A stretch of DNA of 64,000 nt from an uncultured Bacilli bacterium (GTDB taxonomy: Bacteria > Bacillota_I > Bacilli_A > RF39 > UBA660). Under the pieces are notes generated by a model. That model saw only the letters and a list, made by a program, of their open reading frames with translations, was not told where the DNA came from and made no database searches. The stretch covers positions 55,117-119,116 of the forward strand of contig CAKOLB010000004.1 of assembly GCA_934096125.1 (NCBI GenBank), read 5' to 3'. Positions 37,104-55,984 of the stretch are shown in pieces (the first letter of the stretch is position 1; each line of letters begins with the position of its first letter). The translations under genes and the position numbers were made by a program.

Positions 37104-38867
37104 ATGAGAAAATTAATAATAAAAAATTTTAATAAAAAAGATTGGGCTCTAATTTTAGTTAGCGTTGTTTTAATTTTCGGTCAAGTATGGCTAGAACTTA
37201 AGATGCCCGATTATATGTCACAAATTACAGTTTTAGTGCAAACTGAGGGTAGTAAAATGTCTGAAATTATTAAAAATGGGGCATATATGATTTTATGTGC
37301 TTTGGGAAGTTTACTAAGTGCTGTAGTTGTTGGATATTTGATTGCCCGTTTATCTGCGAACTTTTCAAAAGACTTAAGAGAAAAGTTATTTAGTAAAGTT
37401 GAAAGTTTATCTATGCATGAGATAAAAGGCTTTTCAACTAGTAGTTTAATTACTAGGACAACAAATGATGTTACTCAAATAGAAATGTTTGTAGGTATGG
37501 GGATTCAACTTTTGATAAAAGCTCCGATTACGGCGATATGGGCGATTACCAAAATACTAAATAAAAGCTGGCAATGGAGTGCGGTGACAGCTACTTGTGT
37601 AGTAATACTACTTGCGGTTATAAGTATTTTAGTTGTTTTAGTTATGCCAAAATTTAAGATTGTTCAAAAATTAACTGATAAATTAAATAATGTTACGAGA
37701 GAAAATTTAATGGGTATTAGAGTGGTTAGAGCTTTTAATGCGGAAGATTTTCAACAAGACAGATTTGAAGATGTTAATAATAATTTAACAAATTTACAAC
37801 TTTTCAATCAAAAAACTATGGCGATAATGTCACCAGTGATGTACCTTATTATGTATATGTTAACTTTGGCAATTTACTTTATCGGAGCCTTTTTAATTCA
37901 AGATGCTATGATGGCAGATAAAATTTCATTGTTTGGAGATATGGTGGTATTTTCTAGTTATGCAATGCAAATTATTATGTCTTTCTTGATGTTAGCAATG
38001 ATTTTTATGATTTTACCAAGAGCTAGTGTTTCTGCAGGAAGAATAAATGAGGTGTTGGAAACAAATGTTTCTATTCAAAATGGTAGTTATACAAATATAG
38101 ATACGGATGAAGTTGGAGTTGTTGAATTTAAAAATGTATCGTTTAAATATCCTGATGCAGAAGAATATATTTTGAAAGATATATCATTTACGGCGAAAAA
38201 AGGAGAGACTGTTGCATTTATTGGATCTACTGGAAGTGGAAAGTCAACCTTAATTAACTTAATAGTTCGTTTTTATGATGCTACTAGTGGAGAAATATTA
38301 ATTGATGGTATAAATGTAAAAGATTATGATACTGAAGTGCTTTATAAAAAAATTGGATATGTTTCTCAGAAACCAGTGATATTTAGTGGAGATATAAATT
38401 ATAATATTGCTTATGGTGAAGCTAAAAATGAAATAACTGAACAAAAAATTAAAGAGGCAGCTTTAGTGGCACAAGCTCAAGAGTTTATTTTGAAAATGGA
38501 TGAAACATATCAAACAAAGCTTGCGCAAGGAGGAACAAACGTTTCTGGGGGACAAAAACAAAGATTATCGATTGCCCGGGCCATTGCTCGAGATCCGGAA
38601 GTATATATATTTGATGACTCTTTTTCAGCGCTTGACTATAAAACGGATGCAACACTTCGAAGTGAACTCAAGAAATATACAAGTGATGCTACAAACTTAA
38701 TAGTAGCACAAAGAATAGGAACTATTATGCATGCTGATAAAATTATTGTACTTGATAATGGATGTGCAGTTGGAGTGGGTACGCATGCGGAACTTTTAAA
38801 AAATTGTGATATATATAAACAAATTGCGTTATCACAATTATCGAAGGAGGAACTGGAAAATGCCTAG
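37104..38867 (+). CDS. ABC exporter permease/ATPase fusion (heterodimeric multidrug-type, subunit 1)
   Basis: Six TM helices plus an NBD with GSTGSGKST, VSGGQKQRLSIARA and IFDDSFSALD. Confidence 0.85.
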   Translation: MRKLIIKNFNKKDWALILVSVVLIFGQVWLELKMPDYMSQITVLVQTEGSKMSEIIKNGAYMILCALGSLLSAVVVGYLIARLSANFSKDLREKLFSKVESLSMHEIKGFSTSSLITRTTNDVTQIEMFVGMGIQLLIKAPITAIWAITKILNKSWQWSAVTATCVVILLAVISILVVLVMPKFKIVQKLTDKLNNVTRENLMGIRVVRAFNAEDFQQDRFEDVNNNLTNLQLFNQKTMAIMSPVMYLIMYMLTLAIYFIGAFLIQDAMMADKISLFGDMVVFSSYAMQIIMSFLMLAMIFMILPRASVSAGRINEVLETNVSIQNGSYTNIDTDEVGVVEFKNVSFKYPDAEEYILKDISFTAKKGETVAFIGSTGSGKSTLINLIVRFYDATSGEILIDGINVKDYDTEVLYKKIGYVSQKPVIFSGDINYNIAYGEAKNEITEQKIKEAALVAQAQEFILKMDETYQTKLAQGGTNVSGGQKQRLSIARAIARDPEVYIFDDSFSALDYKTDATLRSELKKYTSDATNLIVAQRIGTIMHADKIIVLDNGCAVGVGTHAELLKNCDIYKQIALSQLSKEELENA

Positions 38868-41136
38868 ACCAAATAGAGGGACTGGAAAAGCTAAGGATTT
38901 TAAGGGAGCGCTTAAAAGACTATTTAAAGAATTAAAAGAGTTTCGAGTGCTAGTTTCTATAGCAATGGTTTTGGCTGTTGTCTCAGCAGTTTTGACTATT
39001 TGTACTCCTAATATTTTATCTGATTTAACGGATAAGATATCTGAGGGACTAGTAATAAATAAAGATAATTTTGAAAAAATTACTAAAGAAGTAACGGGCT
39101 CATTTAGTCAATCAAAAATGGCTAGTATCATGGCGATGGATTTAAGCGATAAAAAAATGATGAGTTTATTTTTAGATAGTAGTATTTCGCCAGAAGATTT
39201 GGAAAGTTTTCAAAAAATAACTAAGTCGCTTCAAAATACTAGTGATGAAAGTGAACAGATGAAGTTAATTGCTAGCATTCCATCTAGTATTTTGGCGAAA
39301 GTTTTAAACCAAGATGATAAAATAAGTATTCAAGATAAAGTAACATTTATTAAAAGTATGGGTAGTGATTTAGTTATTCCTGATAGCATTGCTAGTAGCT
39401 TATTTACAGAGTTTTCTATTGATGGTGTAGTAATTACTAGTAGTGATTCTGCTAGATTTATGGAAATGCTTAGTACGGTAAAGGATGAAGATGTAAGTCT
39501 TTTATATAGTAAACTAGATAAGTTACCTGATAATATAAAAGAAGTAGTAAAGCCTGTTTTGGATATGGTAAAAATTAAAAGTATTGCTCTTACACTTGTT
39601 GTTATTTACTTAATTAGTGCGTTATTTAATTATATTGAATCTATATCTATGACTAGTGTTTCGAATAATTTTGCTCGTCGTATTAGAACAAAAATATCAG
39701 AAAAGATTAATGCTTTACCACTTAAATACTTTGATAAACATGCAACTGGTGATACTCTTTCAAGAGTAACTAATGATGTTGATACAATTGCCCAGTCGAT
39801 GAATCAGTCATTGTCAACTTTAGTAAGTGCTGTAACATTATTCTTAGGAACAGTCCTAATGATGTTTGTGACAAACTGGGTTATGGCATTAACAGCGATA
39901 ATTGCAAGTTTACTGGGATTTATCTTTATGGTGCTTGTTCTTTCTAAATCACAAAAATATTTTGTCGCTAAACAAAAAGGTTTAGGAAATTTAAATGGAC
40001 ATATTGAAGAGATATATTCAGGACTTATGGTAGTAAAAGCTTATAATGGTGTGAAAGATGCAACTGATAAATTTAATAAATTAAATTATAATTTATATAA
40101 TGCTAATTGGAAAAGTCAATTTTTATCAGGTCTTATGATGCCAATGATGGTATTTATTGGAAACTTTGGTTATGTTGCAGTATGTATTGTTGGTGCATTA
40201 CTTGCAATGAAAGGTTATATTAGTTTTGGTGTTATCGTAGCATTTATTGTGTATGTTAGATTGTTTACATCACCTTTATCACAAATAGCTCAAGCGATGA
40301 CAAGTTTACAATCTACTGCAGCGGCAAGTGAAAGAGTGTTTGAATTTTTAGATGAAAAAGAGATGAGTAGTGAAGAAAAAGTAACTAAACATTTAGATAA
40401 AGATAAAGTTAAAGGAAAGATAGAATTTAAACATGTATCCTTTAAATATGATGGTAATGATAAGCCGACGATTAATGATTTTAGTGCTATTGCAAAACCT
40501 GGTCAAAAGGTAGCGATTGTTGGACCTACTGGAGCAGGAAAGACAACCATGGTTAATTTGCTTATGAAGTTTTATGATATTAATGATGGGGAAATACTTA
40601 TTGATGGAGTATCAACTAAAGACTTGACAAGAAAAAATATTCATAGCTTGTTTACGATGGTTCTTCAAGATACTTGGATTTTTGATGGAACTGTAAAAGA
40701 AAATATTGTATATAATCAAAGTGATGCAAGTGACTATGATGTGCGAGAAGTTTGTAAGACTGTTGGGCTTGATCATTTTATTAAGACGTTACCTAGTGGT
40801 TATGATACAGTTATTAGTGAAGATTTGATTTCGGCAGGACAAAGACAACTTTTAACAATTGCTAGGGGAATGATGCAAAATGTGCCTTTCCTAATTTTAG
40901 ACGAAGCAACTAGTAATGTTGATACTAGAACGGAAGAATTGGTTCAAAAAGCGATGGATAAACTTACGGAAGGAAAAACTTCATTTATAATTGCCCACAG
41001 ATTATCCACAATTAAAAATGCAGATTTAATATTAGTTATGAAAGATGGTAATATTATTGAACAAGGTGATCATGAAAGCCTTCTTGCTAAAAAAGGATTT
41101 TATGCTGATTTATACAATTCTCAATTTGAGTTATAG
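38862..41136 (+). CDS. ABC exporter permease/ATPase fusion (subunit 2) with a ~180-aa extra domain inserted after TM1
   Basis: NBD motifs GPTGAGKTT, ISAGQRQLLTIARG and LILDEATSNVD. ATG 38862 overlaps the upstream stop. Confidence 0.85.
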
Positions 41137-41513
41137 AGAGGAAACTTCAGTTCATGCTAAATAAAAAACATATTTAGTTTGAATAGTAAAAAGTGTTAAG
41201 TTTTTCTCTTTTTTTTTACAGTAAATAAGAGTAAAATTTTTAATTATTTAAAAATAAATTAAATATATTAAAAATAATTATATCTATTTTTTTCTTTTCC
41301 AAATGAAATTTTCTTATTACGACAAAAAAACAAATAATTACAACTCATAGAATGATGTGTGATCACTTCAAAAGAAATTTTTTGCTCTTGTTGAATTTTT
41401 TTGCTTGGCGATGATATAAATTACTTAGGTGGTAAGTATTTACAATATAAGAAAATATGATAAACTAGTTATACCAAGTATGACTATAACTTTAAGATTA
41501 AGTTAGTAGTTTA

Positions 41514-42089
41514 GTGGTGGAGGATGTTATGTTCGAAGTAGAATTAAATTATATACGAAATGAGAGAATAAGGGAGAGTGCTAAAGTTTTAATTGATGGA
41601 TTGCCAGAGTACTTTTTTCGGATTGCTGCCTCTTCAACGGGAAAATATCATCCTGCTTTTGCCTTGGGTGAAAGAGGTTTAGTAAGACATACTAAAGTAG
41701 CGGTGAGAATAGCGTATGAGTTATTTCAGATTATACCTTATGATCGTTTATTTTCTAGTGATGAAAAAGATATTATGATATTAAGTTTATTGATACATGA
41801 TGGAATAAAAAAAGGATTTACTGAAGAAAGATATACTAGGTTTGATCACCCTAATTTGATAGCAGATTATGTGGAGTTAAATAAAGGGAAAACTAGGCTC
41901 AGTGAAAAAGAGATAGATTTAGTAAAGCATGTTTTAAACTCCCATATGGGAAAGTGGAATACAAATCCTTATAGTAAGGTTGTGCTTAAGCTTCCAAATG
42001 ATAAATATCAATATTTTGTGCATATGTGTGATTATTTAGCTAGTCGTAAGTTTTTAAATGTTAATTTTAATGGTGATAATATAGAATAA
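41514..42089 (+). CDS. HD-domain protein
   Basis: H...HD motif (LLIHDGIKK). Confidence 0.5.
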   Translation: MVEDVMFEVELNYIRNERIRESAKVLIDGLPEYFFRIAASSTGKYHPAFALGERGLVRHTKVAVRIAYELFQIIPYDRLFSSDEKDIMILSLLIHDGIKKGFTEERYTRFDHPNLIADYVELNKGKTRLSEKEIDLVKHVLNSHMGKWNTNPYSKVVLKLPNDKYQYFVHMCDYLASRKFLNVNFNGDNIE

Positions 42090-42200
42090 AGATGGTAATA
42101 GTTGAAATAGCATAAGGTGCTAAGCAGATAAAACAATGTTAAATAATTTTTGGGATATTTCGTTTTTTGAAAAAAGGCATATAATATCTTAGGTGATAAC

Positions 42201-42247
42201 ATGAATGATAGAGCTTTAAAAAAGGTGGTTTTGGATGCCGGACATGG
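42201..42247 (+). pseudogene. Segment A (first ~16 codons) of an N-acetylmuramoyl-L-alanine amidase gene interrupted by mobile element 1
   Basis: MNDRALKKVVLDAGHG, then the frame breaks inside the Amidase_3 DAGHGG motif. The continuation GDDPGT lies at ~50580. Confidence 0.7.
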
Positions 42248-42315
42248 GAGATACTGTTATTCTACACAATGAATAGAAACTATCAGAACTAGTTGATTTA
42301 CATGAAAATTAAACT

Positions 42316-42346
42316 TTAAAGAGATATTTGAAAAAGTATCTCTTTT
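42316..42346. repeat. Perfect 9-bp inverted repeat upstream of mob (candidate oriT or terminator hairpin)
   Basis: aaagagata - tttgaaaaag - tatctcttt. Confidence 0.4.
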
Positions 42347-42373
42347 TGCATATTAAAAAAAAGGGGGAATTAT

Positions 42374-43633
42374 ATGAGTTATGCAATATTTAGAAGTCAA
42401 CCAATAAATACACTACAAGATTTAGCGCAAATTGGTTCACACAATAAAAGAGAAAAGAAAGCTTATAAGAGCAATCCAGATATAAAATTAGATAGAAGTA
42501 AGGATAATATAGAATTAGTAAAATGTGCTGAAAAATATGTTAAAAGATTTTACGAATTAACTAAAGACTATAAAAAAGAACATGAAGAAAGACAAAAGAC
42601 AATGCGAGAAGATAGAAAAAAATCCTATTATAAAATGCTTAATGATGCTAGAAATGTAGTAGCAGATGAATTGTTATTTACAAGTGATAGTTTATTCTTT
42701 AAAGATAAAAGTAAGAAAGAAATATTAAGGTGGGCTAATACTTGTATGGATTTTGTTTATAATGATTTAGGTTATACTAAAGAACAGGTATTACATTCTA
42801 CTATTCATATGGATGAAAAAACACCACACATTCATTGTGTAGTGATTCCACTAGTTAAAAAATTAGATAAAAGAACTAATACAGAAAGATATACTATCTC
42901 AAAAAAGCAATATATCAAAAATAACGAGCATTTAAGTGAATTACAAGATAAATACCATAATAGATTAGTTAAGGCTGGTTTTGATCTAGAAAGAGGTTTA
43001 AAAGGCAGTACAGCAGAGAATATAAATATAAAAGAATTTAAAAAAATGACTAGAAGGTTAGATAAGTCATTAGAGAAAAGTACACTATTATTAAATGATG
43101 ATTATAATGACTTAAAAGTTAAATTAAATAAAAGTAAACCTACAATAACTGGCAAGGAAGTTAAAATAGATAAAGATACTTATCAAACATTAAATAAATT
43201 TATGAGTACGGCTAAAAGAATAATAGAAGATATTCCTAAAACACAATCAATGGTAAAAACTTTAGATGAGTATACCAAAATCTTTAGAAGTACGCAAAGA
43301 GAGAATATTCAATTAAAGAAAGAAGTAAATAGACTTGAATTAGAAAAAGAAGAAATCAAACAAGAAAATAATAGACTAGAAAATCTTATGTATAATTTAC
43401 TTCAAAGATTAAAAGATTTATTTAAAAAAATTCTTCATATAGGTACTGATAAAGAAAAAGATAATGTATCAAAAGAAATAAAGTATCATTATGATAATAA
43501 TTATTATAACGATTTAGATTTATGCTATATTTCTAAGGGAACAACTAAAGAAAGAGATATATTTGAACACATTGGTTATATCAAAAAAGGGTATAACAAA
43601 GAAAAAGAAGAAGATTTTGATATAAATAGATAA
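42374..43633 (+). CDS. mob: MobV/Pre-family plasmid recombination/mobilisation relaxase
   Basis: N-terminal Mob_Pre pattern (MSYAIFRSQPINTLQDLAQIGSHNKRE...HMDEKTPHIHCVVIPLV), which is the His-rich relaxase motif. The C-terminus is a coiled coil. Confidence 0.85.
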   Translation: MSYAIFRSQPINTLQDLAQIGSHNKREKKAYKSNPDIKLDRSKDNIELVKCAEKYVKRFYELTKDYKKEHEERQKTMREDRKKSYYKMLNDARNVVADELLFTSDSLFFKDKSKKEILRWANTCMDFVYNDLGYTKEQVLHSTIHMDEKTPHIHCVVIPLVKKLDKRTNTERYTISKKQYIKNNEHLSELQDKYHNRLVKAGFDLERGLKGSTAENINIKEFKKMTRRLDKSLEKSTLLLNDDYNDLKVKLNKSKPTITGKEVKIDKDTYQTLNKFMSTAKRIIEDIPKTQSMVKTLDEYTKIFRSTQRENIQLKKEVNRLELEKEEIKQENNRLENLMYNLLQRLKDLFKKILHIGTDKEKDNVSKEIKYHYDNNYYNDLDLCYISKGTTKERDIFEHIGYIKKGYNKEKEEDFDINR

Positions 43634-43699
43634 GTCAAAACAAAAACGGACTTTTTTCGTGGTATAATAAAGAAAAACTTGTTATTTTTGGAGGTAGTT

Positions 43700-45910
43700 A
43701 TGAACAAAGAAAATAAAATTATAAATTTTAAAAATGAAGATTCAAAGAAAAATATTTCTTTAGAATTAGATAAAAAAATGATTTTTATTTACGGTAAAAA
43801 TGGTAGTGGCAAAACAACTTTTTCTAGATCGAACGATTTGGATAAAAAATATGTATTTAATGAAGACTTCGTATATAAAAATGTTTATATAATAGACGCT
43901 GAAGGAGCAAAAATTGATTCAGGTGTTAAAAATAATTTTTCAGAGTTGCTTGTTGGAGAAGATGTTGTTCTATTAAAAGAAAAACAAAATAAATTAGAAG
44001 AAATATATAAAGAATTAAATACTAAAAGTAATGATAATGAAACATTTATCAATTCTAGTTTAGCAAGTAATGGTATTCCAAACAGTTATAATTTTTTAAA
44101 GGAAAAAGTTGATGAAACTTTTAATTATGATGAAACAAAAACAATCGAAGAACAAATGGAGATATATAAGAGCGATTTAGAATTGGAACAGACTATTACA
44201 AATGATAAAGAGTTAGAAATCAATGTGAATCAAATAAAGAAACATGAGAATATTAAATTATTAATAGAAAAAATAAAAAAAATACCATTGTTAGAGGAGT
44301 TTCTTTTTTCAGAGGATTATCCAATACTATTGAAACTTAATTCTGATTTAGACATTATTAATACAAATATTCAAAACATTAAAAGTTTAGAAGAGTTAGG
44401 GAAAAAGAAAAGGGTAGAAAAAAATGATTTTTCTATTATAAGAGATTGTATAACATTACAAGAAAAAGTGGGAACTGATATTTGTGTATTATGTGGTAAT
44501 ACTGAAATTAAAGCAGGTATAGAAGAATGGAAGAAAATATTTCAGGACAAAACAGTAAATTTAAAAACGAAAGTAATATCAGAATTAAATGATATTCTAA
44601 AAAATTGTAAAACTATTATTGATGATAGAAAAGTATATGAACCTGTTGCACCTGGTACTATTAACAATATAATAATATTTATAGGAATTATAGAAAACGC
44701 TTTAAAAGAAGTGAATTTAGGCAATGTTTTAGAAATTAAATATCAAGAAATCGTAAGAGAAAAATATACTGAAGACATTATTCAAAAGTATAAAACTATT
44801 GCAAATTACGTATTAAAGAAATATAAAGATAAAACTATTTTCTTAAATTCATCACTTAAAAGTGTAGGTGGTAAAATAAAAGTAATAAAAGAAAACATAG
44901 AAAAAATTTTAAAGCTAAATGCTGACACCCATAAAGAATCAATAAACTCTATTCTTAAAGATTTGGGATTAGATAAAGAAATAACCGTTGGTGTTGATAG
45001 ACTAGGCGGTAAAATAAAATATTCACTAAATGTAGTTAATAACAATTTATCAAAATTGAGTGATGGGCAAAAACATAAATTAGCTTTGGCAATATTTTTA
45101 AATACTATTAAAAATGAAGATTTAAAAGGTAAAACAGTTGTGTTTGACGACCCTGTTGTTGCGCTTGATGAACTAGGATATCACTTTTTTAAACAATATG
45201 TTATAAAAAATATAATGAATAATCCTAACATAGAAGAATGCCCTAATCTTATTATATTAACTCACAACTTTAATTATCTTTATATACAAACAAGTAATAT
45301 AATAATTAGTCCTAATTTACAAGACAATACAAAAATATTGAAATTAAATTCAGATGGATTTAAAGAATTAGATTTTGAATTGTTTAAATTAGATGATATC
45401 GCATTATTTAAAAAATGCTTAGATAATATTAAGTATGAAGATGAATTGATAGACTTAAGTAGTTTATACAATAAAGTTTTTAGAGAATTTTTGGATTTAA
45501 AACTAAGAATACTTGGAAATCCATTAAATGGTAATCCAGCAGAAGAAATAAAGATAATAGTATCTGATGAACAAACAAGAAAATTGTTGCAGGAACAAAG
45601 TAATAAGTTAAGTAGTTATTCAAAAAATAAAAATATAACAATAGAAGAATCGAAAGAAGGTTTTTGCTTATTATCAGATATGCTAAAGACAATAGGGTTT
45701 GATGAATATATTCTGCCTCAAAACATTGATTCAATTAAAAATATTGTAAAGAGGGAAGAAATAATTTATTCAGATATATTTTATATTATTCATGAAATAG
45801 CAAATATTTTAAGAAATGAAGATAATAAATATAAAAATTATATAAATTATTTAAATCATCCAAGAATATCATTTACTAAAAATATGATGTCAACATCTAT
45901 GGATGCATAG
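43700..45910 (+). CDS. ABC-type ATPase with long coiled-coil insert and central CxxC (RloC/PrrC-like anticodon-nuclease candidate)
   Basis: Walker A GKNGSGKT near the N-terminus. CVLC (nt 44483-44494) lies midway to the ABC signature LSDGQKHKLALA and Walker B TVVFDDPV. A ~240-aa C-terminal domain follows. ATG 43700 has a GGAGGT RBS. Confidence 0.45.
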   Translation: MNKENKIINFKNEDSKKNISLELDKKMIFIYGKNGSGKTTFSRSNDLDKKYVFNEDFVYKNVYIIDAEGAKIDSGVKNNFSELLVGEDVVLLKEKQNKLEEIYKELNTKSNDNETFINSSLASNGIPNSYNFLKEKVDETFNYDETKTIEEQMEIYKSDLELEQTITNDKELEINVNQIKKHENIKLLIEKIKKIPLLEEFLFSEDYPILLKLNSDLDIINTNIQNIKSLEELGKKKRVEKNDFSIIRDCITLQEKVGTDICVLCGNTEIKAGIEEWKKIFQDKTVNLKTKVISELNDILKNCKTIIDDRKVYEPVAPGTINNIIIFIGIIENALKEVNLGNVLEIKYQEIVREKYTEDIIQKYKTIANYVLKKYKDKTIFLNSSLKSVGGKIKVIKENIEKILKLNADTHKESINSILKDLGLDKEITVGVDRLGGKIKYSLNVVNNNLSKLSDGQKHKLALAIFLNTIKNEDLKGKTVVFDDPVVALDELGYHFFKQYVIKNIMNNPNIEECPNLIILTHNFNYLYIQTSNIIISPNLQDNTKILKLNSDGFKELDFELFKLDDIALFKKCLDNIKYEDELIDLSSLYNKVFREFLDLKLRILGNPLNGNPAEEIKIIVSDEQTRKLLQEQSNKLSSYSKNKNITIEESKEGFCLLSDMLKTIGFDEYILPQNIDSIKNIVKREEIIYSDIFYIIHEIANILRNEDNKYKNYINYLNHPRISFTKNMMSTSMDA

Positions 45911-46069
45911 TCTTTTTTGAAAAATGGATATATAAAGATACATTTTAGTAACACACTACGATATTGACAGAGCCAATAACGATGTGTGCCAAGGGGATTG
46001 TCCCTTTGGAAACCCTATTAGCTCTATCGCCACTTTCATTGCTAAAGCAACAAAACGTGCCACGAGCTA

Positions 46070-46102
46070 AAAAGACTGACAAAAATTAATTGTCAGTCTT
46101 TT
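46070..46102. terminator. Bidirectional terminator between the ATPase gene and the convergent XRE gene
   Basis: 12-bp stem aaaagactgaca / tgtcagtctttt with a 9-nt loop. Confidence 0.75.
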
Positions 46103-46361
46103 CTGATGGAATATCATCAAATAGTTGTCTGATGTCTATTCCTAAAGCATCAGCAAATTTACCTATGGTTTCTAATGTTGGAGTTTTATCAATGCTTAAG
46201 CATTCTAAATCTCGAACATATCCATGAGTCAGTTCAGTTAAATCAGCTAATTCTTGAAGTGTATAACCACGTATAAGTCTGTATTTTCGAATGTTTTTTC
46301 TAACTTGAATAGATAAAATTGTTTTTGAATATCTTCTCATAGAAGTTATACACCTCCTCAC
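46086..46361 (-). CDS. XRE-family HTH transcriptional regulator
   Basis: HTH_3 pattern (RLIRGYTLQELADLTELTHGYVRDLE). Confidence 0.75.
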   Translation of the reverse strand: MRRCITSMRRYSKTILSIQVRKNIRKYRLIRGYTLQELADLTELTHGYVRDLECLSIDKTPTLETIGKFADALGIDIRQLFDDIPSEKTDN

Positions 46362-46448
46362 ATTTAAATTATTTCATAAAAATTTTAAAAAATATGTCGC
46401 CTGACAGAAGTTTTTGTGATATAATTAAAATGAAAGGAGACTGCTTTT

Positions 46449-46925
46449 ATGAAGAAATGCAAATATTGTCAAACTGAAATTGACTCAAAAGCAAAAATTT
46501 GCCCAAACTGTAAAAAGAAACAAGGTAAACCAAAATGGTTAATAGCTTTAATTGTTATTATTGTAATAATGATTATTGCATCTGTTGCTGGAGGTAACGA
46601 AGAGAATGCTAAGGAAGGAAATGTTTCAAACGGAGGTAATAAGCCAACAGAAAAATTTACTTATGAAGTAACAAAACAATATGCAGATGAATATGGTATG
46701 TCTTATTATATAGAAGGTAGTGTAAAAAATAATAAGGATAAAGATTATTCATATGTTCAAATTGAATTTGTTTGCTATGATGCAGAAGGCAATAACCTTG
46801 GAACTGCTATTGATAATACAAATAATTTACTAGGAAATCAGACTTGGAAATTTAAAGCAATGGCTATGTTTAGTGATGCTGAAACTGTTGATCATTGCGA
46901 TTATCATGAAATAACAAGCTGGTAA
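46449..46925 (+). CDS. Zinc-ribbon membrane-anchored protein of unknown function
   Basis: CKYCQ...CPNCKK zinc ribbon, one TM helix, then an extracytoplasmic domain. Confidence 0.4.
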   Translation: MKKCKYCQTEIDSKAKICPNCKKKQGKPKWLIALIVIIVIMIIASVAGGNEENAKEGNVSNGGNKPTEKFTYEVTKQYADEYGMSYYIEGSVKNNKDKDYSYVQIEFVCYDAEGNNLGTAIDNTNNLLGNQTWKFKAMAMFSDAETVDHCDYHEITSW

Positions 46926-47035
46926 AATAGTTGGAAGTCTTTTTAAGACTTCTTTTTGTTAGATTTTTTTACCAAAATAGTCGTTTTATATTTGTTTTAT
47001 GTTATAATAATATTTAATGAAAAAAGGGTGGTTTT

Positions 47036-47335
47036 ATGTATCAATTATTGAGTTTATTCAGTTTTCTTATTAGGGCATATTTGTGTTATTGCACAATAGA
47101 TAATATTCCAATATTAGCTAATCCGATATTAAATAGTATTTTAGGGGAAGTAATATCCTTATATACTATTTTGTGGGCAATAAGTTATTTTGTTGTTGGA
47201 AGATTTTATGATAAAGGTTCTGAACCCTTGTTAGGTGTTATTTTATATTTTATTGTATATGTTGTAATTCTGGGAATTACATATTTATTGTTGTTATTAT
47301 TAACATATATTGGAGTTTTACCAATAGTTATATAA
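47036..47335 (+). CDS. Small hydrophobic membrane protein
   Basis: 99 aa with three predicted TM helices. Confidence 0.3.
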   Translation: MYQLLSLFSFLIRAYLCYCTIDNIPILANPILNSILGEVISLYTILWAISYFVVGRFYDKGSEPLLGVILYFIVYVVILGITYLLLLLLTYIGVLPIVI

Positions 47336-47364
47336 ATAAAAAAACTTATCGTTGTGATAAGTTT

Positions 47365-47904
47365 TTATAGGTTTATTCTATCATCAGGTAATTTTGAGTA
47401 ATCATATTTTTCAGCACACATTTCTAAATCTTCGTAAATAGAGGTTAATTGTGCTAATATTTTTTCGGGTGGAAGTAATTCTTTATAATAATCATAATCT
47501 TTAAGTAAAAGCATCATTTGGAATATTCTTGTTCTGCAATCAGCAACTTTAGTTCTTTTCTCATAAGAATCTTCTAATAAATCCAATTGAGATTCTCTAT
47601 ATTGTTTTACTAATTCCTTTATATTTTTAGGAGTTTTATGTTTTGAAGTGTCTTTGAAACTATCTAGAATATCACTATAACCAGCAGTAGTTAAAAGAAA
47701 TTCTAAACTTATTTCTAATACTTCAGATAAACTTCTTAACATATCTATATCTGGTTTTTTAATATTACCTTTTTCAAGTTCATTATATGTAGAGTGATGT
47801 GTATTGATTAAACGAGCTACTTTTCTTTGAGAGTAGCCTTTTTTTGTTCTAGCAGTCCTTAATATTTTACTTAATTCTTCAAGATTAGCATTATTATTTT
47901 CCAT
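47365..47904 (-). CDS. XRE-family HTH regulator with C-terminal extension (repressor-like)
   Basis: N-terminal HTH (KKGYSQRKVARLINTHHSTYNELEKGN). It is divergent from the downstream winged-helix gene. Confidence 0.7.
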   Translation of the reverse strand: MENNNANLEELSKILRTARTKKGYSQRKVARLINTHHSTYNELEKGNIKKPDIDMLRSLSEVLEISLEFLLTTAGYSDILDSFKDTSKHKTPKNIKELVKQYRESQLDLLEDSYEKRTKVADCRTRIFQMMLLLKDYDYYKELLPPEKILAQLTSIYEDLEMCAEKYDYSKLPDDRINL

Positions 47905-48134
47905 TTAAACCACCTCTAAAATGCTTTCTTCCAATAACATAATACCATAACGAAAATTAAAAAGCAATAATTTTGTCGGTTATTCTTGACAAAATTATAA
48001 TTACAATGTATATTATAGTTGTCGGGCAATCTTGACAAAAAAGGGGGATAGTAATAAAGTAGATTGCTAATGCGACTAATGTTCTTTGAAAATTTACACA
48101 AGTCTTTAAAGGTTAATTAAAAGGGGGTGATAGC

Positions 48135-48638
48135 ATAACAGAATCTATAAAAGATGGGTTTTGGATTATACCTGCAAAAGTAGGTATAGATGATGCACTC
48201 ACATTACAAGATAAATTACTATATGCTCAAATCTTATCATTAACAAGACAAGATGGATTCTGTTTTGCTACTAATTCTTATCTATCTAATTTAAATAATG
48301 TTACTCCAAAAACAATTTCTAACAGTATTTCTAATCTTAAAAAAAATAATTATATACGAGTTGAATATCACAAGGAAAAAATAAATAAAGATAAAAGAAA
48401 AATATTTGTAACTGATAAGGGGGTATGGAAAACAAATCCTGGGGATATAGAAAAAAATGTTAATACCGGTATGGAAGATAATTTCCAATATAATAATATA
48501 AAGAATAAAAAGATAAAAAAATATAATACCAATAATAATGTTCCTTGGTGGCTAGATAAAGAAATTAAAGAAAATCCTGCATCTCTAGAAGAACAAGCAG
48601 AGATGGAAGCACTACTAAGCGAATTTAAAAAAGATTGA
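48135..48638 (+). CDS. Winged-helix replication-initiator-like protein whose start codon position is occupied by ATA (paralog of 52602-52895)
   Basis: The frame is open from 48117 to 48638 with no ATG, GTG or TTG in the first ~105 codons. The RBS AAAGGGGGTGAT sits 6 nt before ATA 48135. The translation aligns with the element-2 paralog (DGFWIIP...LLYAQILSLTRQDGFCFAT versus EGYVVMG...LLSIMLSLPDTWCYST), which starts with ATG at the equivalent position. Confidence 0.45.
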   Translation: MTESIKDGFWIIPAKVGIDDALTLQDKLLYAQILSLTRQDGFCFATNSYLSNLNNVTPKTISNSISNLKKNNYIRVEYHKEKINKDKRKIFVTDKGVWKTNPGDIEKNVNTGMEDNFQYNNIKNKKIKKYNTNNNVPWWLDKEIKENPASLEEQAEMEALLSEFKKD

Positions 48639-48937
48639 AAAGGAGTTGGTTTTATAAATAAATACAAGACTAAATCATAAAATTTAATAAAAAGGAAAAG
48701 GGGGAATTATAAGAATGGAGGTAGTACTTAAGGCAAAACACACATTTAAAACTGATATATCAAACGAAGAATTATTTAGAGATAGATTTAACGAGATATT
48801 GTTAAAAGTTATATTGCATCTTGAGCAAAATTACCAAAGTAGTTAAAAAAATTATAAATAACTATCAAAAAGGGGTATAATATAAGTTGTAGTCGATTTA
48901 GTTCTGATAGTTATACACAGAATTGGAGGATATAACT

Positions 48938-50533
48938 ATGAGACTAAGAGTTGGTATTTATGGGAGGTTATCACAAGAGGATATAGATAAGATAAACAAA
49001 GAAGATGAAAGTGAAAGTATCCAAAATCAAAAAAGAATGTTATTAGAGTATGCTTTAAAAAATGATTGGGATGTAGTTGATATTTATATTGATGAAGATT
49101 ATTCAGGTGCTGGAGTTTATAGACCAGAGTTTGAGAGAATGCTAAAAGATTGTGAAAATGGAAAACTAGATATAGTTTTATGTAAGAGTCAATCAAGATT
49201 CTCGAGAGATATGGAAATAATTGAAAGATATATAAATAACAAATTTAAAGAATGGAATGTTAGATTTATTAGTTTAGTAGATAATATAGATACTGATAAT
49301 AAATCTAATAAGAAATCTATTCAAATATTAGGACTAACTAATGAATGGTATTTAGAAGATTTATCAGATAACATTAAAAGAACAATTAGGAATAAAAAAG
49401 AGTCTGGACAATTTACTGGTTCATTTGCTCCCTATGGTTATTTAAGAAGTGAAGAAGATAAACACAAATTAGTTATTGATCCTATTGCTTCAATCATTGT
49501 TAAAAAGATATTTGAAATGTATAAACAAGGTAATGGTTATACTAAAATAGCAACTTATTTGAATGATACTAATGTTCCTAGTCCTTATGAACACAAAAAA
49601 GCAAGTGGTAGTAAATTTGTATGTGGAAATGTTGGAAAGGAAAAATCATATTGGTATTCAGATACAATTGCTAAAATCTTAAAAGATGAAGTATATATTG
49701 GAAATCTAGTACAAGGAAAAACAAGGCATATAAGTTATAAAAATAAAAAATCAGTTCCTGTTCCTAAAGAAGATTGGATAATTGTTAAAAACACACACGA
49801 ACCTATAATAGATGAAGATACTTGGAATATAGTTTCTGCTAAATTTAAAGGTAGGACAAAGCCAAGTAAATCTGGGGAAATTCATATGTTTACTAAAAAG
49901 GTTTATTGTGATTGTTGCAAAAAAATATTTTATAATGGTTATTCTAAATCAGGAAATGGGAACAAGCATTATTATTTAACTTGTAAGTCTAGAAAATCAG
50001 GGGTGTTTTGTGAAAATAATCTATCTATTAGAGTAGATAAATTAAAAGACTTTATCCTTAATGAGATTAATGAATATATCAAAGTTTATCATAATTCTAA
50101 AGCTTTAAATGAGAAATACCAAAAATTAAATACTAAGAATAATAAAAATGAGATTCAAGAACAAATTAAAACTTTGGAAAAACAACAAACTGAATTAGAA
50201 AAATCACAAAGTAAAAAGAATTCTTATTTAAGAAAATTATATGAAGATAGAATAGAGGGTTTCATTACTGATGAGCAATACAAAGCTTTTAGTAAAGACT
50301 ATGATGATGAATTAAATGAATTGCAAAACAGAATTCAATTAATAAAAGATGAAATCACTCTCTTAAATCAAAGGCACAGTGATATGATTGATAGAGATAA
50401 AATATTTAATAAATATAAATCTATAAAGGAATTAGATAGAAGTATATTAGATGATTTTATAGAAAAAATATATATCGGTGCAGTAGATAAAGAAACGAAT
50501 GAACGAGAAATAAATATTGTATGGGCCATATAA
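48938..50533 (+). CDS. Large serine recombinase (TnpX-like resolvase/integrase) of element 1
   Basis: N-terminal catalytic domain (RVGIYGRLSQED... with the serine in YGRLS, and ...SRFSRD), followed by a recombinase domain and a Cys-rich zinc ribbon (CDCCKK...CKSRKSGVFC). ATG 48938 has a GGAGGA RBS. Confidence 0.9.
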   Translation: MRLRVGIYGRLSQEDIDKINKEDESESIQNQKRMLLEYALKNDWDVVDIYIDEDYSGAGVYRPEFERMLKDCENGKLDIVLCKSQSRFSRDMEIIERYINNKFKEWNVRFISLVDNIDTDNKSNKKSIQILGLTNEWYLEDLSDNIKRTIRNKKESGQFTGSFAPYGYLRSEEDKHKLVIDPIASIIVKKIFEMYKQGNGYTKIATYLNDTNVPSPYEHKKASGSKFVCGNVGKEKSYWYSDTIAKILKDEVYIGNLVQGKTRHISYKNKKSVPVPKEDWIIVKNTHEPIIDEDTWNIVSAKFKGRTKPSKSGEIHMFTKKVYCDCCKKIFYNGYSKSGNGNKHYYLTCKSRKSGVFCENNLSIRVDKLKDFILNEINEYIKVYHNSKALNEKYQKLNTKNNKNEIQEQIKTLEKQQTELEKSQSKKNSYLRKLYEDRIEGFITDEQYKAFSKDYDDELNELQNRIQLIKDEITLLNQRHSDMIDRDKIFNKYKSIKELDRSILDDFIEKIYIGAVDKETNEREINIVWAI

Positions 50534-50576
50534 TTTAGTCCATACAGGACTTGTGTAGAATAAACATAACCTCCAC

Positions 50577-50806
50577 ATGGTGGTGATGATCCGGGGACTA
50601 TTGCAAATGGAATAACTGAAAAAGATTATACTTTGAAGATAACAAATTATATTCACAACAGATTAGATGAACTTGGAGTGCCAAATAAATTATCGAGGAG
50701 TACTGATGAGACTTTAGATGCCAGTAGTAGGCCACAGAGAATACAAAGTCTTTATGGAAATGGGAGTGATGTGATTGTTGTGTCTAATCACATAAATGCA
50801 GGGGGA
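50577..50806 (+). pseudogene. Segment B (~75 codons) of the interrupted amidase gene, lying between the two elements
   Basis: HGGDDPGTIANGITEKDYTLKITNYI...VIVVSNHINAGG is the Amidase_3 core. The frame then runs into element 2 (QDA, stop). Confidence 0.7.
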
Positions 50807-50928
50807 CAGGACGCGTAATATGTGGTTAATCGTAGGCGCAGTGTATAACTTTAATAAGCTTCTTATTTTACTGTATATGATGGTATAATAGATATATCAA
50901 ATAACTTTAAAGATGAGAGGTGAAAAGA

Positions 50929-51840
50929 ATGTTATATATAACTGGTGATACTCATGGAGATTTTTATAGATTTGGTCATTTAGGATTAAATGAAGGTGAT
51001 ATTATGATTATCTTAGGGGATGTGGGTATTAATTATTACTTAGATGAATATGATAAAAAGTTAAAGGAAAGATTAAAAAGATATAATTTTAAATTTTTCT
51101 GTATTCAAGGTAATCATGAAAAAAGACCAGAAAATATTTCAAGTTACCACGAAGTGGAAATGTTTGGCGGTAAAGTATTTGTAGAAGATGAATATCCTAA
51201 TTTAGTATTTGCTAAAAATGGAGAACTTTATAATATTGATGACAAAAGTATTTTAGTAATAGGTGGAGCTTATTCTATTGATAAAGATTATAGAATAAGT
51301 AAAGGATATCCTTGGTTCAAAGATGAACAATTAACTGAGAAAGAGAGACTAAATATATTGGACGAGTATTCTGGTAAACATGTGGATATAATTTTATCTC
51401 ATACTTGTCCATTAAGATATGAACCTAAAGAAAGCTTTAAATTAAGTTTGCCACAGATTGCGATAGATAAATCTATGGAGTATTTTCTAAATGAAGTAGA
51501 GCAAAGAGTAGATTATGGTAAATGGTATTGTGGACATTATCATTTAGAAAAAATTGTGGACAAGTTAGAGTTTATGTTTGGAAGAATTAAAAGTGTTGAC
51601 ACAGGAGAATTTATTCCTAAATATGATTTCCATAATGGCTACAAAATAGTTAGAGATGTATGTAGTCAAAAAGATTATAAATATTGTCCTGAATGTAAAG
51701 GAGATAATATAATTATAGAAAAAGGTGAAGGACATAATATTAATGGTTTAGATTTTATTGCTATCATTTGTAATGATTGTAAAAAAGTTTATGGATTTAA
51801 TGATGTTAATTATAAACGTAATTGTCCTAAAGAATTGTAA
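50929..51840 (+). CDS. Calcineurin-like metallophosphoesterase with C-terminal zinc ribbon
   Basis: GDTHGD and GNHE motifs. C-terminal CPECKG...CNDCKK. Confidence 0.65.
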   Translation: MLYITGDTHGDFYRFGHLGLNEGDIMIILGDVGINYYLDEYDKKLKERLKRYNFKFFCIQGNHEKRPENISSYHEVEMFGGKVFVEDEYPNLVFAKNGELYNIDDKSILVIGGAYSIDKDYRISKGYPWFKDEQLTEKERLNILDEYSGKHVDIILSHTCPLRYEPKESFKLSLPQIAIDKSMEYFLNEVEQRVDYGKWYCGHYHLEKIVDKLEFMFGRIKSVDTGEFIPKYDFHNGYKIVRDVCSQKDYKYCPECKGDNIIIEKGEGHNINGLDFIAIICNDCKKVYGFNDVNYKRNCPKEL

Positions 51841-51914
51841 CTGTGTTTACCAAATTTTAAAATTTATGCTATAATTAAGATGTAATAATTATTTGACTAA
51901 GTGTGGTGAGTAGT

Positions 51915-52550
51915 ATGGAGTATAGAAAATATTCATTTAGACATGCAGAAGATATTTTTAAAAACGATAAGGATTTTACTTATTTATGGAATGAAATTTT
52001 GGAAGTGCTTGATAGTATAAGCGATGATGATTTAATTAATGAATTTAACATTGAAACTAGAAAAGCAAAAAGCATTTCCGAAGCAATTAATAAATTAATT
52101 GCAAAAAGGCTAAGTGAAAAAGGATGGCATGAACAAAGTTACATTTTTGCTGACCCTGATTATTCTGATAATAAAGGTACATGGAGATTAGATTTTGCAA
52201 AAGATAATATTGCAATTGAAGTTGCATTTAATCATGGAGGAAATGTATCTTGGAATTTAATTAAGCCAGTATTATCTAGTGAATTAAATCATGTTAAAAA
52301 GGCAATACAAACTCAAGCTGGCGTTGTCATAACAGCAACTGATGCTATGAAAAAAGCCGGTGGATTTGATAATGCTATCGGTACCTATGAAAAATATGTT
52401 GAATATCTAAAACCATTAAATAATTTGTTAACCACACCTATGATGATAATAGGATTAGAACCACCAAAAAAGTTTACTATTGAGCAGAAAAAAGAAGATG
52501 GTAAAATGGTTGGACATGTTAAATTAAAAGAAGAAGATAATAACTTTTAG
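51915..52550 (+). CDS. Hypothetical protein, possibly a BglII/BstYI-family type II restriction endonuclease
   Basis: From memory, the block RLDFAKDNIAIEVAFNHGGNVSWNLIKPVLSSELNHV resembles the BglII active-site region (D-x9-E-V-Q/x...EL-H). The gene sits beside a GATC-type R-M pair. This is an unverified recollection. Confidence 0.3.
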   Translation: MEYRKYSFRHAEDIFKNDKDFTYLWNEILEVLDSISDDDLINEFNIETRKAKSISEAINKLIAKRLSEKGWHEQSYIFADPDYSDNKGTWRLDFAKDNIAIEVAFNHGGNVSWNLIKPVLSSELNHVKKAIQTQAGVVITATDAMKKAGGFDNAIGTYEKYVEYLKPLNNLLTTPMMIIGLEPPKKFTIEQKKEDGKMVGHVKLKEEDNNF

Positions 52551-52601
52551 ACTTACAATTTTGTGAGTCTTTTTATTTTGAAAAAGAAAGGATACGATAT
52601 T

Positions 52602-55875: not shown

Positions 55876-55984
55876 ATGAAAAAATGTTAAAATTTGGTAA
55901 TTTATCTAAATAGTGTTATAATTTTATACAGAAGATATGCAGTATTTGTCTTTTTAAGATGGATACTGCATTTTTTTGAAGTAG

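Follow-up and report, generated by a model that had tools for sequence, protein, structure and literature searches.

A single-gene RloC-type defence candidate with a variant C-terminal domain on a mobile element of an uncultured gut Bacilli bacterium

Introduction

Among enzymes that abort infection by cutting tRNA, RloC and PrrC are the classic examples, and how far their nuclease module varies is poorly charted. Both belong to the Pfam family AAA_13 (PF13166). RloC has an ATPase switch that responds to Zn and to DNA. [quoted passage not shown] PrrC is smaller (~370-400 aa), lacks a coiled-coil/hook insert and is almost always encoded inside a type I restriction-modification (R-M) locus. In EcoPrrC both Asp residues of 215-DDPVSSLD-222 are essential, and the nuclease residues comprise R320/N321/E324, R349/N352/H356 and H295 (PMC3025547). 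No solved structure of RloC or PrrC turned up in our structure searches.

An ABC ATPase with a small all-helical C-terminal domain is also found in the ABC-HEPN fusions APECO1_4465 and ERFG_01251 (Anantharaman et al., 2013), groups known from mobile islands and from the neighbourhood of R-M systems (PMC3710099). HEPN domains are all-helical; their last core helix begins with R-x4-6-H, and an acidic residue is conserved in E-x3-[KR] (PMC3710099). Rad50, SbcC and SMC proteins share an ABC head and a long helical insert with a CxxC(G) hook; Rad50 and SbcC have no extra C-terminal domain (PMC2610378). Here, we describe an ATPase gene found in a 64,000-nucleotide stretch of DNA from an uncultured Bacilli bacterium (assembly GCA_934096125.1, contig CAKOLB010000004.1, positions 55,117 to 119,116 of the forward strand), referred to below as the window, and compare its product with these systems.

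Results

Reading frame and selection

An uninterrupted open reading frame occupies positions 43679..45910 of the plus strand and amounts to 743 aa when counted from a TTG codon, which is the length that had been given in the initial annotation. The frame is real, but the protein almost certainly comprises 736 aa starting from the ATG at 43700, because a GGAGG sequence lies 5 nt upstream of this codon and approximately 100 full-length homologues all begin there (Table 1). A candidate extended -10 promoter falls between the stop of the upstream relaxase gene (43633) and the ATPase gene; it was not listed by a consensus promoter scan, which required a -35 hexamer. The reading frame is no chance feature, as it is 2.2 kb long in DNA of 23% G+C, has 108 homologues and shows a low dN/dS. 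Against three homologues, dN/dS was 0.10-0.18 for the gene as a whole and 0.07-0.11 for the C-terminal domain, the lowest within the protein. Given this strong purifying selection, a pseudogene reading was rejected. Length within the family is uniform, at ~730 aa in ~100 clusters. An Rfam search of positions 41100-51000 gave no match.

Table 1. Features of the ATPase gene, its product and the element that carries it (positions in the window; residue numbers count from the ATG at 43700)
Feature	Coordinates	Strand	Basis or remark
Mobile element 1, ~8.3 kb, carrying the ATPase gene	42248..50580		Pfam/NCBIfam matches, nucleotide homology, junction alignments
MobV relaxase	42374-43633		Within element 1
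Large serine recombinase	48923-50533		Within element 1; Resolvase+Recombinase+Zn_ribbon+DUF4368
TGgTATAAT, candidate extended -10 promoter	43660..43668	+	Read from sequence; putative function
GGAGG ribosome-binding site	43690..43694	+	Sequence; 5 nt upstream of ATG 43700
Gene for 736-aa ABC/zinc-hook ATPase with C-terminal presumed effector domain	43700..45910 (stop codon included)	+	Open reading frame, shared start, AAA_13, dN/dS
Walker A / P-loop, G32-K-N-G-S-G-K38-T39	43793..43816	+	G32, N34, G35, G37, K38 invariant in 99 sequences
Helical insert, residues 87-421, splitting the ABC head in two	43958..44962	+	AlphaFold2 secondary structure; hhalign alignment to RloC-like proteins runs through it
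Candidate zinc hook, C262-V-L-C265-G266	44483..44497	+	C262, C265 invariant; G266, W277 at least 90% conserved
ABC signature (C-loop), L453-S-D-G-Q-K-H-K460	45056..45079	+	S454, G456, H459, K460 invariant; aligned on RloC LSEGEK
Walker B and D-loop, V479-V-F-D-D-P-V-V-A-L-D490	45134..45169	+	D483, D484, P485, D490 invariant
H-loop, T521-H522	45260..45265	+	H522 invariant (33-sequence set), at least 90% (99-sequence set)
C-terminal all-helical domain, residues 556-736, presumed effector	45365..45907	+	AlphaFold2 pLDDT 91, pTM 0.87, ten helices
D565-D566, invariant (consensus DDIxLF)	45392..45397	+	On conserved [DE]-Y-Q/H-x-l-W helix of RloC-like proteins in full-length hhalign
Helix R595-E-F-L-D599-L-K-L-R603-I-L-G606, candidate counterpart of RloC/PrrC catalytic R-x3-E helix	45482..45517	+	R595, R603 invariant; D599, G606 at least 90% (99 homologues)
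N716-Y-L-N-H720-P-R722, with the domain's sole invariant His	45845..45865	+	H720 invariant; Y717, R722, T726 at least 90%

Mobile element and neighbourhoods of homologues

The element bearing the gene is flanked by ACATGG at 42242-42247 and 50575-50580 and has inserted within an amidase gene at its GHGG codons, the translated flanks on the two sides reading MNDRALKKVVLDAGHG and HGGDDPG. It also carries HTH genes. Nucleotide homology to three further loci (L030-L032) was found over 42171-46438 and 47350-50718, and the same backbone occurs at sites with differing outer flanks, related elements having swapped other cargo. At other chromosomal locations, the same element carries a copy of the gene with 84% identity. 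This recurrence of the backbone agrees with the earlier description of the gene as mobile-element cargo. With Tn4451/Tn4453 the element shares a large serine recombinase, a Mob_Pre/MobV relaxase, a size of ~8 kb and exchangeable cargo, a likeness of gene content, gene order aside; it differs in that the cargo is a defence candidate and not catP. The original comparison to Tn4451 is thus upheld by the relaxase and by the recombinase with its DUF4368 domain, while the analogy to the catP slot is a loose one.

Other homologues occur among defence genes, as the initial annotation would lead one to expect. In one type I R-M locus, hsdR is followed directly by a copy of 90% identity, which has hsdR as its neighbour just as PrrC does; in the window there is no such hsdMSR embedding. 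A 68% copy adjoins a type II R-M system and GmrSD, and a 32% copy, carried by an integrase/Mob element, has an AAA_21 and RloB pair as well as R-M genes beside it; RloA/B-like genes are thus among the neighbours of homologues. Nucleotide homology to the R-M-locus copy is confined to 43659-45916, and the gene therefore moves as a self-contained module. Across the homologue contexts examined there was no conserved partner gene, and no Mre11/SbcD-type nuclease or kleisin neighbour was conserved.

ATPase head and zinc hook

Motif conservation was scored over 99 homologues, with a separate set of 33 sequences also used. The Walker A, CxxC, LSDGQK and VVFDDPV motifs are located where they had first been read, and the ABC ATPase motifs are invariant or almost so; the signature follows Walker A by ~415 residues and not by about 450. 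The Walker B/D-loop DDPVVALD is of the same DDP...LD type as DDPVSSLD of EcoPrrC, and the H-loop corresponds to KFIITTH251 of that protein. Pfam AAA_13 was matched at 51 bits, above its gathering threshold of 36 (residues 352-540 on profile positions 395-587 of 713), as it was by 33/33 family members tested (best E = 4e-22). An NCBIfam search of the protein returned generic ABC matches only. In PDB sequences, phmmer picked up nothing beyond a chance match to a DNA ligase.

For comparison with RloC, 80 RloC-like proteins were gathered in steps that led from PrrC peptide fragments to plasmids and on to metagenome loci; the set includes the 792-aa protein of Cupriavidus CH34, an RloC orthologue in Davidov and Kaufmann's Table S1 (PMC2610378). 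Full-length hhalign against this set gave Prob 99.9% and E = 3.7e-32 over 561 columns (residues 3-614), with the hooks and all ABC motifs aligned. Judged from these profile comparisons, residues 1-555 belong to the PrrC/RloC ATPase family, in keeping with the type of ATPase first proposed. The homology is remote: RloC was not found by phmmer or tblastn with the 736-aa protein. The tblastn search of phage and plasmid collections gave no match, and none came from a GkaRloC coiled-coil query reconstructed from an OCR'd alignment in the PMC2610378 supplement.

The insert had been expected to be helical, and in the AlphaFold2 model it is 76% helix with zero strands, with long helices at 87-123 and 360-421. 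Its midpoint is residue 254, close to the CVLC motif at 262-265 as had been noted, and the CxxC aligns by hhalign on an invariant C-x-F-C of the RloC-like proteins. The spacing from the Walker A Lys to the hook Cys is 227 residues, within the RloC-like range of 204-245, whereas the second arm, from hook to Walker B, is ~50 residues shorter than theirs. In a home-made heptad-periodicity test no helix was significant, a test too crude to count against a coiled coil. When the full-length model was compared by fold, it matched best to heads that carry coiled coil, namely those of Rad50, SMC and Lamassu LmuB. Compared with Rad50, SbcC and SMC proteins, the arms here are much shorter, Walker B is of the DDP and not the DE type, an extra 181-aa C-terminal domain is present and there is no Mre11/SbcD partner. 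With no partner gene and an extra C-terminal domain, a Rad50/SbcC repair role was rejected.

Among described systems the order of parts is identical to that of RloC, namely Walker A, an insert with a central C-x-x-C-G, LS.G, DDP...LD, H-loop and a helical C-terminal domain with R-x3-acid. Size is also similar, and some copies of the 736-aa family are likewise tied to R-M loci or mobile elements. PrrC shares AAA_13 membership, the DDPV..LD Walker B/D-loop and a TTH/LTH H-loop, and hhalign against 30 PrrC proteins gave Prob 84% and E = 7e-6, aligned only over Walker B to H-loop. The present protein differs from PrrC in its 335-aa insert, in having no match to the PrrC box (YYNAFYEDLFYWDND) and no significant match to the PrrC nuclease domain (SYH...LLRNLYEK...R-x6-H), and in the location of its family, mostly outside type I R-M loci. 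A PrrC orthologue was rejected on account of the hook insert and the absent PrrC box.

Six models of the PADLOC candidate system PDC-S06 matched the protein with partial coverage (best E = 2.8e-13). PDC-S06 is also a single gene of similar size, its Streptococcus thermophilus ST55 copy at 716435-718624 encoding ~729 aa; however, the matches span mainly residues ~350-550 and the P-loop, with the C-terminal domain outside. No experimental test of PDC-S06 or of the 736-aa family was found in the literature searched, and PDC-S06 has the standing of a candidate only.

C-terminal domain

The C-terminal domain extends 181 aa past the ABC fold, or 214 aa past the H-loop, and is thus shorter than the ~240 aa first estimated. 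Its all-helical AlphaFold2 model is a confident one (pLDDT 91). It is confined to the ~730-aa family, with 78 representatives among 1.84 billion proteins in an exhaustive profile search. It matched no Pfam family; its profile gave weak compositional matches to Dps/NapA only against the PDB, and Foldseek of the domain model against the PDB and BFVD found nothing significant. Among the 50 Foldseek matches listed, the top two target-normalised TM-scores belonged to HEPN proteins (0.41-0.44, E ~4-5). The HEPN motif R-x4-6-H is absent in the 736-aa protein, which sets it apart from the APECO1_4465 and ERFG_01251 groups as compared by description. The initial annotation had proposed a profile check of this region against anticodon nucleases, and the domain alone gave no significant match to either family, with hhalign Prob 0.1% and no R-x6-H motif for PrrC and P = 0.16 and 0.48 for the RloC nuclease domains.

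Five residues of the domain are invariant in sequences down to 22% identity. Over the 99 homologues they form an invariant polar cluster of D565, D566, R595, R603 and H720, to which D599, R722 and T726 can be added. The acidic pair D565-D566 has no counterpart in PrrC. The R595 helix was paired in every hhalign run with N-t-m-R-x-I-L-E-x-x-F-x-F-x-G of RloC, and the spacing from the Walker B Asp to the Arg is 112 residues, compared with 104-121 in RloC-like proteins. The latter have the invariants N-x2-R-x3-E...N-x2-S-H. In the present domain Asp takes the place of the Glu, and N-x2-S-H is replaced by N-x2-N-H-P-R some 80 residues further along, so that R595 and H720 are 125 residues apart, where R and H are separated by 40-50 in RloC-like proteins. 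Neither R-x6-H nor N-x2-S-H is present at the spacing expected from PrrC and RloC. Set against the published RloC triad, the arrangement is R595-X3-Asp599-X120-His720 with Asn preceding the His, and only the first half (R-x3-acid...G) is matched. The likeness suggested by these alignments is therefore one of motifs and collinearity only, placing R595-x3-D599...G606 on the R-x3-E...G helix of RloC.

Discussion

We place the gene among RloC-type defence candidates that consist of one gene; it resembles PDC-S06 and carries a variant effector. The specific reading we favour, to which we would give an even chance, is that of a single-polypeptide abortive-infection protein whose effector is a diverged RloC nuclease domain. 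If GkaRloC and EcoPrrC are taken as the analogues, two protomers would pair through their ATPase heads and through Zn2+ held by the CxxC hooks, and this paired resting state would keep the C-terminal effector off. A phage-related cue, for which DNA ends, damaged DNA or lost restriction-enzyme activity are candidates, may then set the effector free through the binding or hydrolysis of ATP. The effector would most likely cut RNA by metal-independent Arg/acid/His chemistry, as RloC and PrrC cut tRNA anticodon loops, whereupon translation would stop and the infection would be aborted. Anticodon-nuclease activity is plausible on this analogy. Such an effector would have kept the R-x3-D helix and had its His motif rebuilt as N-H-P-R after a helical insertion of ~80 residues, and its target and chemistry may therefore differ.

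A somewhat less probable explanation retains the RloC-type defence ATPase and takes the C-terminal domain to be a non-homologous effector or adaptor, such as a DNase, a non-RNA toxin or a domain recruiting a host or R-M protein in trans; the cell would still gain immunity or abort the infection, though not by cleaving tRNA. The family-restricted domain, unmatched by sequence, profile and fold searches, is consistent with this, as is the D565-D566 pair, which could bind a metal ion, and ABC ATPases of defence systems are known in combination with a wide range of effectors (bioRxiv 10.1101/2024.01.29.577857). However, the significant RloC alignment extends past the ABC fold through the DDIxLF and R-x3-D helices, the same helices were paired in three independent hhalign runs with the Walker B-to-Arg spacing conserved, and PrrC and RloC themselves rely on an Arg/acid/His cluster. 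It is very improbable that the protein is a decaying or inactive RloC-like relic whose nuclease catalytic motif has been lost. The missing canonical motif would fit such a relic, but selection is strongest precisely in the C-terminal domain, where five residues have stayed invariant at great divergence, and the length of the family is uniform.

The full-length model has its best fold matches in Rad50, SMC and LmuB heads, and the gene lies between the relaxase and the recombinase in the window, so a non-defence Rad50/SbcC/SMC-like ATPase handling DNA for the element (in maintenance, excision or transfer) or acting in DNA repair was considered. We judge this to be improbable, since neither an Mre11/SbcD nor a kleisin partner is conserved, Rad50 and SbcC lack the additional domain (PMC2610378), the gene also occurs off any element directly beside R-M genes, the type I R-M locus shares the gene alone, and related elements retain the backbone as they exchange other cargo. 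More speculatively, and rather unlikely in our view, the C-terminal domain might be an undescribed effector fold or active site (D-D, R-x3-D-x3-R, N-H-P-R) coupled to a DNA-sensing zinc-hook ATPase of the RloC type. It would be a HEPN-like RNase re-engineered for a new target, or else a toxin of a wholly different kind. The gene would then be a one-gene immunity cassette spreading in gut Bacilli and Clostridia and hopping between R-M loci and mobilizable transposons.

Returning to the favoured reading of a diverged RloC nuclease, the RloC sensor has been kept almost landmark for landmark and the His motif of the effector appears to have been rebuilt, which would make this family a natural experiment on the ACNase active site, asking which of its parts are essential and whether target choice can be re-programmed. 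The gene is also a clean case, from uncultured gut Firmicutes, of a defence cassette of one gene that has been exchanged between a type I R-M locus and a mobilizable transposon with a serine recombinase. Should the protein prove toxic or protective, the PADLOC candidate PDC-S06 would become a validated system.

Gene Product and Conserved Motifs

The gene of the RloC-like ABC ATPase (hereafter the ATPase) lies within an open reading frame at 43679..45910 (+), for which the initial annotation gave 743 aa, the length obtained from TTG 43679. As a GGAGG (43690–43694) precedes ATG 43700 and all full-length homologues share this first Met, the ATG was taken as the start, with a product of 736 aa. 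The host has ~28% G+C and Firmicute-like genes. Read from the sequence, a TGgTATAAT that follows the relaxase stop and precedes the gene is a candidate for the gene's own extended −10 promoter. Purifying selection was evident, with dN/dS of 0.13, 0.10, and 0.18 against homologues of 90, 84, and 68% protein identity, and was strongest in the C-terminal domain (0.07–0.11).

Motif conservation was read from an alignment of 99 homologues with identity down to 22%. All of the motifs listed in the initial annotation are present and are invariant or nearly so in this alignment. The distance from Walker A to the signature was measured at ~415 residues in place of the ~450 first estimated, and 181 aa lie beyond the ABC fold in place of ~240. 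In an AlphaFold2 model (pLDDT 86), long helices (87–123 and 360–421) exit and re-enter the head, and shorter helices surround the hook. Helix makes up 76% of the insert, which has no strand. The top fold matches of the model were the coiled-coil-bearing heads of Rad50, SMC, and Lamassu LmuB (E 1e-5 to 1e-4). A crude, home-made test of heptad periodicity in the insert helices was not significant, and the putative coiled coil is therefore claimed from homology to the RloC insert, not from periodicity.

Features of the mobile elements and motifs of the ATPase
Feature	Position	Located in	Remark
Element 1	~42248–50580		~8.3 kb; carries the ATPase gene
MobV/Mob_Pre relaxase	42374–43633	element 1	
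TGgTATAAT	43660–43668	element 1	candidate promoter
ATPase gene	43700–45910	element 1	plus strand
Zinc-ribbon membrane protein	46449–46925	element 1	variable slot
Small hydrophobic ORF	47036–47335	element 1	variable slot
Two HTH genes and small ORFs		element 1	
Large serine recombinase with DUF4368	48923–50533	element 1	
Element 2	~50820–62200		second serine-recombinase element, directly beside element 1
Metallophosphoesterase	50920–51840	element 2	
BglII-like endonuclease	51903–52550	element 2	
HTH_36 protein		element 2	
MutH/Sau3AI-like endonuclease	53070–54467	element 2	minus strand
C5 cytosine methylase	54637–55875	element 2	
DEAD/ResIII helicase	56929–59322	element 2	
Recombinase	60464–62089	element 2	
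4xLysM protein	62372–63133	after element 2	
Walker A	G32-KNGSG-K38-T	ATPase	
CxxC hook	C262-VL-C265-G266	ATPase	
ABC signature	L453-SDGQKHK-460	ATPase	
Walker B/D-loop	V479-VFDDPVVALD-490	ATPase	
H-loop	T521-H522	ATPase	

Relationship of the Head and Hook to RloC and PrrC

The ATPase scores 51 bits against Pfam AAA_13 (cut-off 36), the family of the anticodon nucleases PrrC and RloC, and 33 of 33 members tested also match. A PrrC reference set was retrieved with a query built from published EcoPrrC peptides (alignment A6), and an RloC-like set was reached from PrrC through plasmid tblastn matches and then enlarged with 80 metagenome loci. The latter contains the 792-aa protein of Cupriavidus metallidurans CH34 (ORF recovered), listed as an RloC orthologue by Davidov and Kaufmann (Table S1, PMC2610378). 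The published RloC hallmarks were recovered as invariants of alignment A7 (seven plasmid sequences), namely the C-x-F-C hook, LSEGE, DDP, TH, N-x2-R-x3-E, and N-x2-S-H.

Full-length profile–profile comparison with 80 RloC-like proteins gave Prob 99.9% and E = 3.7e-32 over 561 columns (ATPase residues 3–614), and with the eight plasmid RloC-like proteins only, E = 8.4e-28, the CxxC hooks being aligned on each other. Landmark spacings were compared with 64 RloC-like proteins. From the P-loop Lys to the second Cys there are 227 residues (204–245 in the RloC-like proteins), and the Arg of the R-x3-acid helix follows the Walker B Asp by 112 (104–121; GkaRloC 120, EcoPrrC 105). The stretch from Cys to Walker B Asp is 218 (253–276), an arm ~50 residues shorter. 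With PrrC, the alignment covered only Walker B to the H-loop (Prob 84%, E = 7e-6), as expected since PrrC has no insert. EcoPrrC 211-YVFIDDPVSSLD-222 is of the same unusual Walker B/D-loop type as VVFDDPVVALD, and EcoPrrC strictly requires all three aspartates concerned, two in Walker B and one in the D-loop (PMC3025547). PrrC identity was rejected, as the ATPase possesses the insert and has neither the PrrC box nor a nuclease-domain match. Judged by these alignments, the head and hook are of RloC type and the sensor part is homologous to that of RloC and would act in a similar way. The published ACNase triad of RloC differs, with Asp for Glu in the ATPase and a spacing of X120 against X36–52. 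The protein is thus best described, on sequence grounds, as an RloC-type ABC/zinc-hook protein with an effector domain specific to its family.

The C-Terminal Domain

Modelled alone (38 sequences), the C-terminal domain (residues 556–736) is all-helical with ten helices (pLDDT 91, pTM 0.87). D565, D566, R595, R603, and H720 are invariant; at D599, G606, Y717, R722, and T726 conservation is ≥90%. A Pfam search with the domain alone returned nothing, comparison with PDB sequences gave compositional matches only, and Foldseek against PDB and BFVD found nothing with E < 0.6. The HEPN proteins 2hsb and 7bxo_D had the two top target-normalised TM-scores (0.41–0.44) among the 50 PDB matches listed, a hint at most. 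When 1.84 billion cluster representatives were searched exhaustively with an HMM of the domain, 78 proteins emerged, all of the same ~730-aa architecture or fragments of it. A likeness of the domain to anticodon nucleases, for which profile searches were proposed initially, received no support from them, hhalign giving Prob 0.1% against PrrC and P = 0.16 (11 sequences) and 0.48 (79 sequences) against RloC C-domains.

The full-length RloC-like alignment passes beyond the ABC fold, up to residue 614, pairing DDIxLF of the ATPase with [DE]-Y-Q/H-x-l-W of RloC, and K-I-F-R-x-F-L-D-L-x-L-R-x-x-G with N-t-m-R-x-I-L-E-x-x-F-x-F-x-G. The domain-only hhalign runs, themselves non-significant, independently arrive at this pairing, with R595 matched to the catalytic Arg of RloC and D599 to the Glu, and the spacing between Walker B and R595 is that of RloC. 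It is this extent, repeated pairing, and spacing that keep a relationship with the RloC nuclease alive. Past the R-x3-D helix the family has ~80 extra residues (predicted helices 613 to 704), and the domain's final motif is N716-Y-L-N-H720-P-R722-x-S-x-T. Its counterparts are [FY]-x-N-x-x-S-H in RloC-like proteins and R-I-I-Q-F-T-S-H in PrrC, all sharing an aromatic residue followed by N-x3-H. PrrC and RloC have an Arg before the His (R349 in EcoPrrC, which is essential; PMC3025547), whereas the ATPase family lacks it and has a near-invariant Arg after the His. The nuclease domain of RloC and PrrC is of HEPN type (PMC3710099). We infer, short of demonstrated homology, that the C-terminal domain is probably a strongly diverged derivative of this domain with its second motif rebuilt.

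Distribution and Homologue Contexts

A search of 5.8 billion proteins identified 108 relatives, nearly all of 727–770 aa with Pfam PF13166, the remainder being shorter fragments. Where names exist, which is in few cases, they do not go beyond "AAA family ATPase" or "hypothetical protein," save one JGI automatic label, "EcfA2." In one-genome-per-species contigs the hosts are MAGs of uncultured Bacilli, Clostridia, Erysipelotrichaceae, Acholeplasmataceae, Mycoplasmatales, and two Muribaculaceae bins; tblastn against 72,556 plasmids and 50,697 phage records gave no match. The best PADLOC matches were to PDC-S06 (E = 2.8e-13), with which the ATPase overlaps and which is itself a candidate defence system.

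In a type I R-M locus (L001), the 90%-identical gene directly follows hsdR and adjoins a HigB/HTH pair. Nucleotide homology (91%) is confined to L001 7963–10217 and window 43659–45916, starting ~40 bp before the ATG and stopping 6 bp past the stop codon. The gene and its own upstream signals are therefore the unit that moved, and, on this homology, gene and putative promoter/RBS region are a discrete cassette common to R-M locus and transposon. The 45% homologue adjoins another serine recombinase, and the 68% homologue adjoins GmrSD together with a methyltransferase of D12 class and an endonuclease of AlwI type. The 32% homologue (P0064), on an integrase/Mob_Pre element, has an AAA_21 and RloB pair, a HEPN gene, and R-M genes as neighbours. 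At the P0064 loci (L005–L008, 6012–7876) the AAA_21 ATPase and RloB pair is immediately upstream of the AAA_13 gene, and rloC-like and rloA/B-like genes are thereby carried along with each other. No neighbour is common to the contexts of the 90, 84, 68, 45, and 32% copies, which argues for a one-gene system. As read from these neighbourhoods, the pattern is what a defence gene would show, reminiscent of the way rlo genes came by their name, from "restriction-linked ORF" (PMC2610378).

The Carrying Element and Its Surroundings

Element 1 has inserted into an Amidase_3/CwlD-like gene, precisely at the G-H-G-G codons (42234–42250; 50570–50818), with MNDRALKKVVLDAGHG on the left side and HGGDDPG...; HGGDDPGTIANG...SNHINAGGQDA* on the right, and is flanked on either side by ACATGG. 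Elements carrying the 84%-identical protein (L030–L032) have the same backbone and the same GHGG amidase motif with different outer flanks, which indicates that the element is mobile and site-selective and suggests that the serine recombinase targets a conserved coding motif site-specifically. The otherwise collinear elements differ at 46439–47349, where L030–L032 carry DUF5067/DUF4352 genes; this region, varying between copies, is therefore exchangeable cargo in a second slot.

Downstream of the ATPase gene, a 195-nt stretch (45911–46105, +) has G+C apparently above its surroundings and an MFE of −54.3 kcal/mol (z = −6.3 vs. shuffles), and is closed by a strong bidirectional terminator hairpin (46074–46098). 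Rfam gave no match for it. The stretch is kept with the backbone in L030–L032 and is missing from the R-M-linked copy, and so is not an obligatory partner of the gene.

The amidase remnant ends past NHINAGG, where element 2 begins, and the two look like tandem defence-loaded elements within one cell-wall hydrolase gene. The nonamer TGGTATAAT occurs at 43660–43668 and again at 50881–50889, before element 2's first gene (50920), and either copy may serve as an extended −10 promoter for cargo genes. Just left of element 1, beyond the region homologous to related elements, a 191-aa ORF (41514–42089) has a weak HD-domain match (E = 0.015) and is preceded by two ABC-exporter genes (37104–41136).

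Proposed Function

The computed features comprise a complete conserved PrrC/RloC-type ATPase site, a helical insert homologous to the RloC CC/ZH with a conserved CxxC midway along it, and a helical C-domain under constraint that bears an Arg/Asp/His/Arg cluster. Following the biochemistry of GkaRloC and EcoPrrC (PMC2610378, PMC3458546, PMC3025547), the ATPase heads would dimerise head-to-tail, zinc would join two hooks, and hook and DNA-dependent ATPase would hold the nuclease inactive. The switch would respond to DNA breaks, to phage DNA, or to disturbed restriction, upon which the C-domain would cut tRNA (or other RNA) by metal-independent transesterification, halting translation and aborting infection.

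The gene is likely to be of RloC type and to serve defence or abortive infection. The combined reading, an RloC-type defence gene with an anticodon-nuclease effector, stands at about even odds, and the assignment of the effector itself as an anticodon nuclease is tentative, falling somewhat short of that. The family is moderately interesting and would hold little surprise for specialists. Should its rebuilt active site turn out to function, it would be of use.
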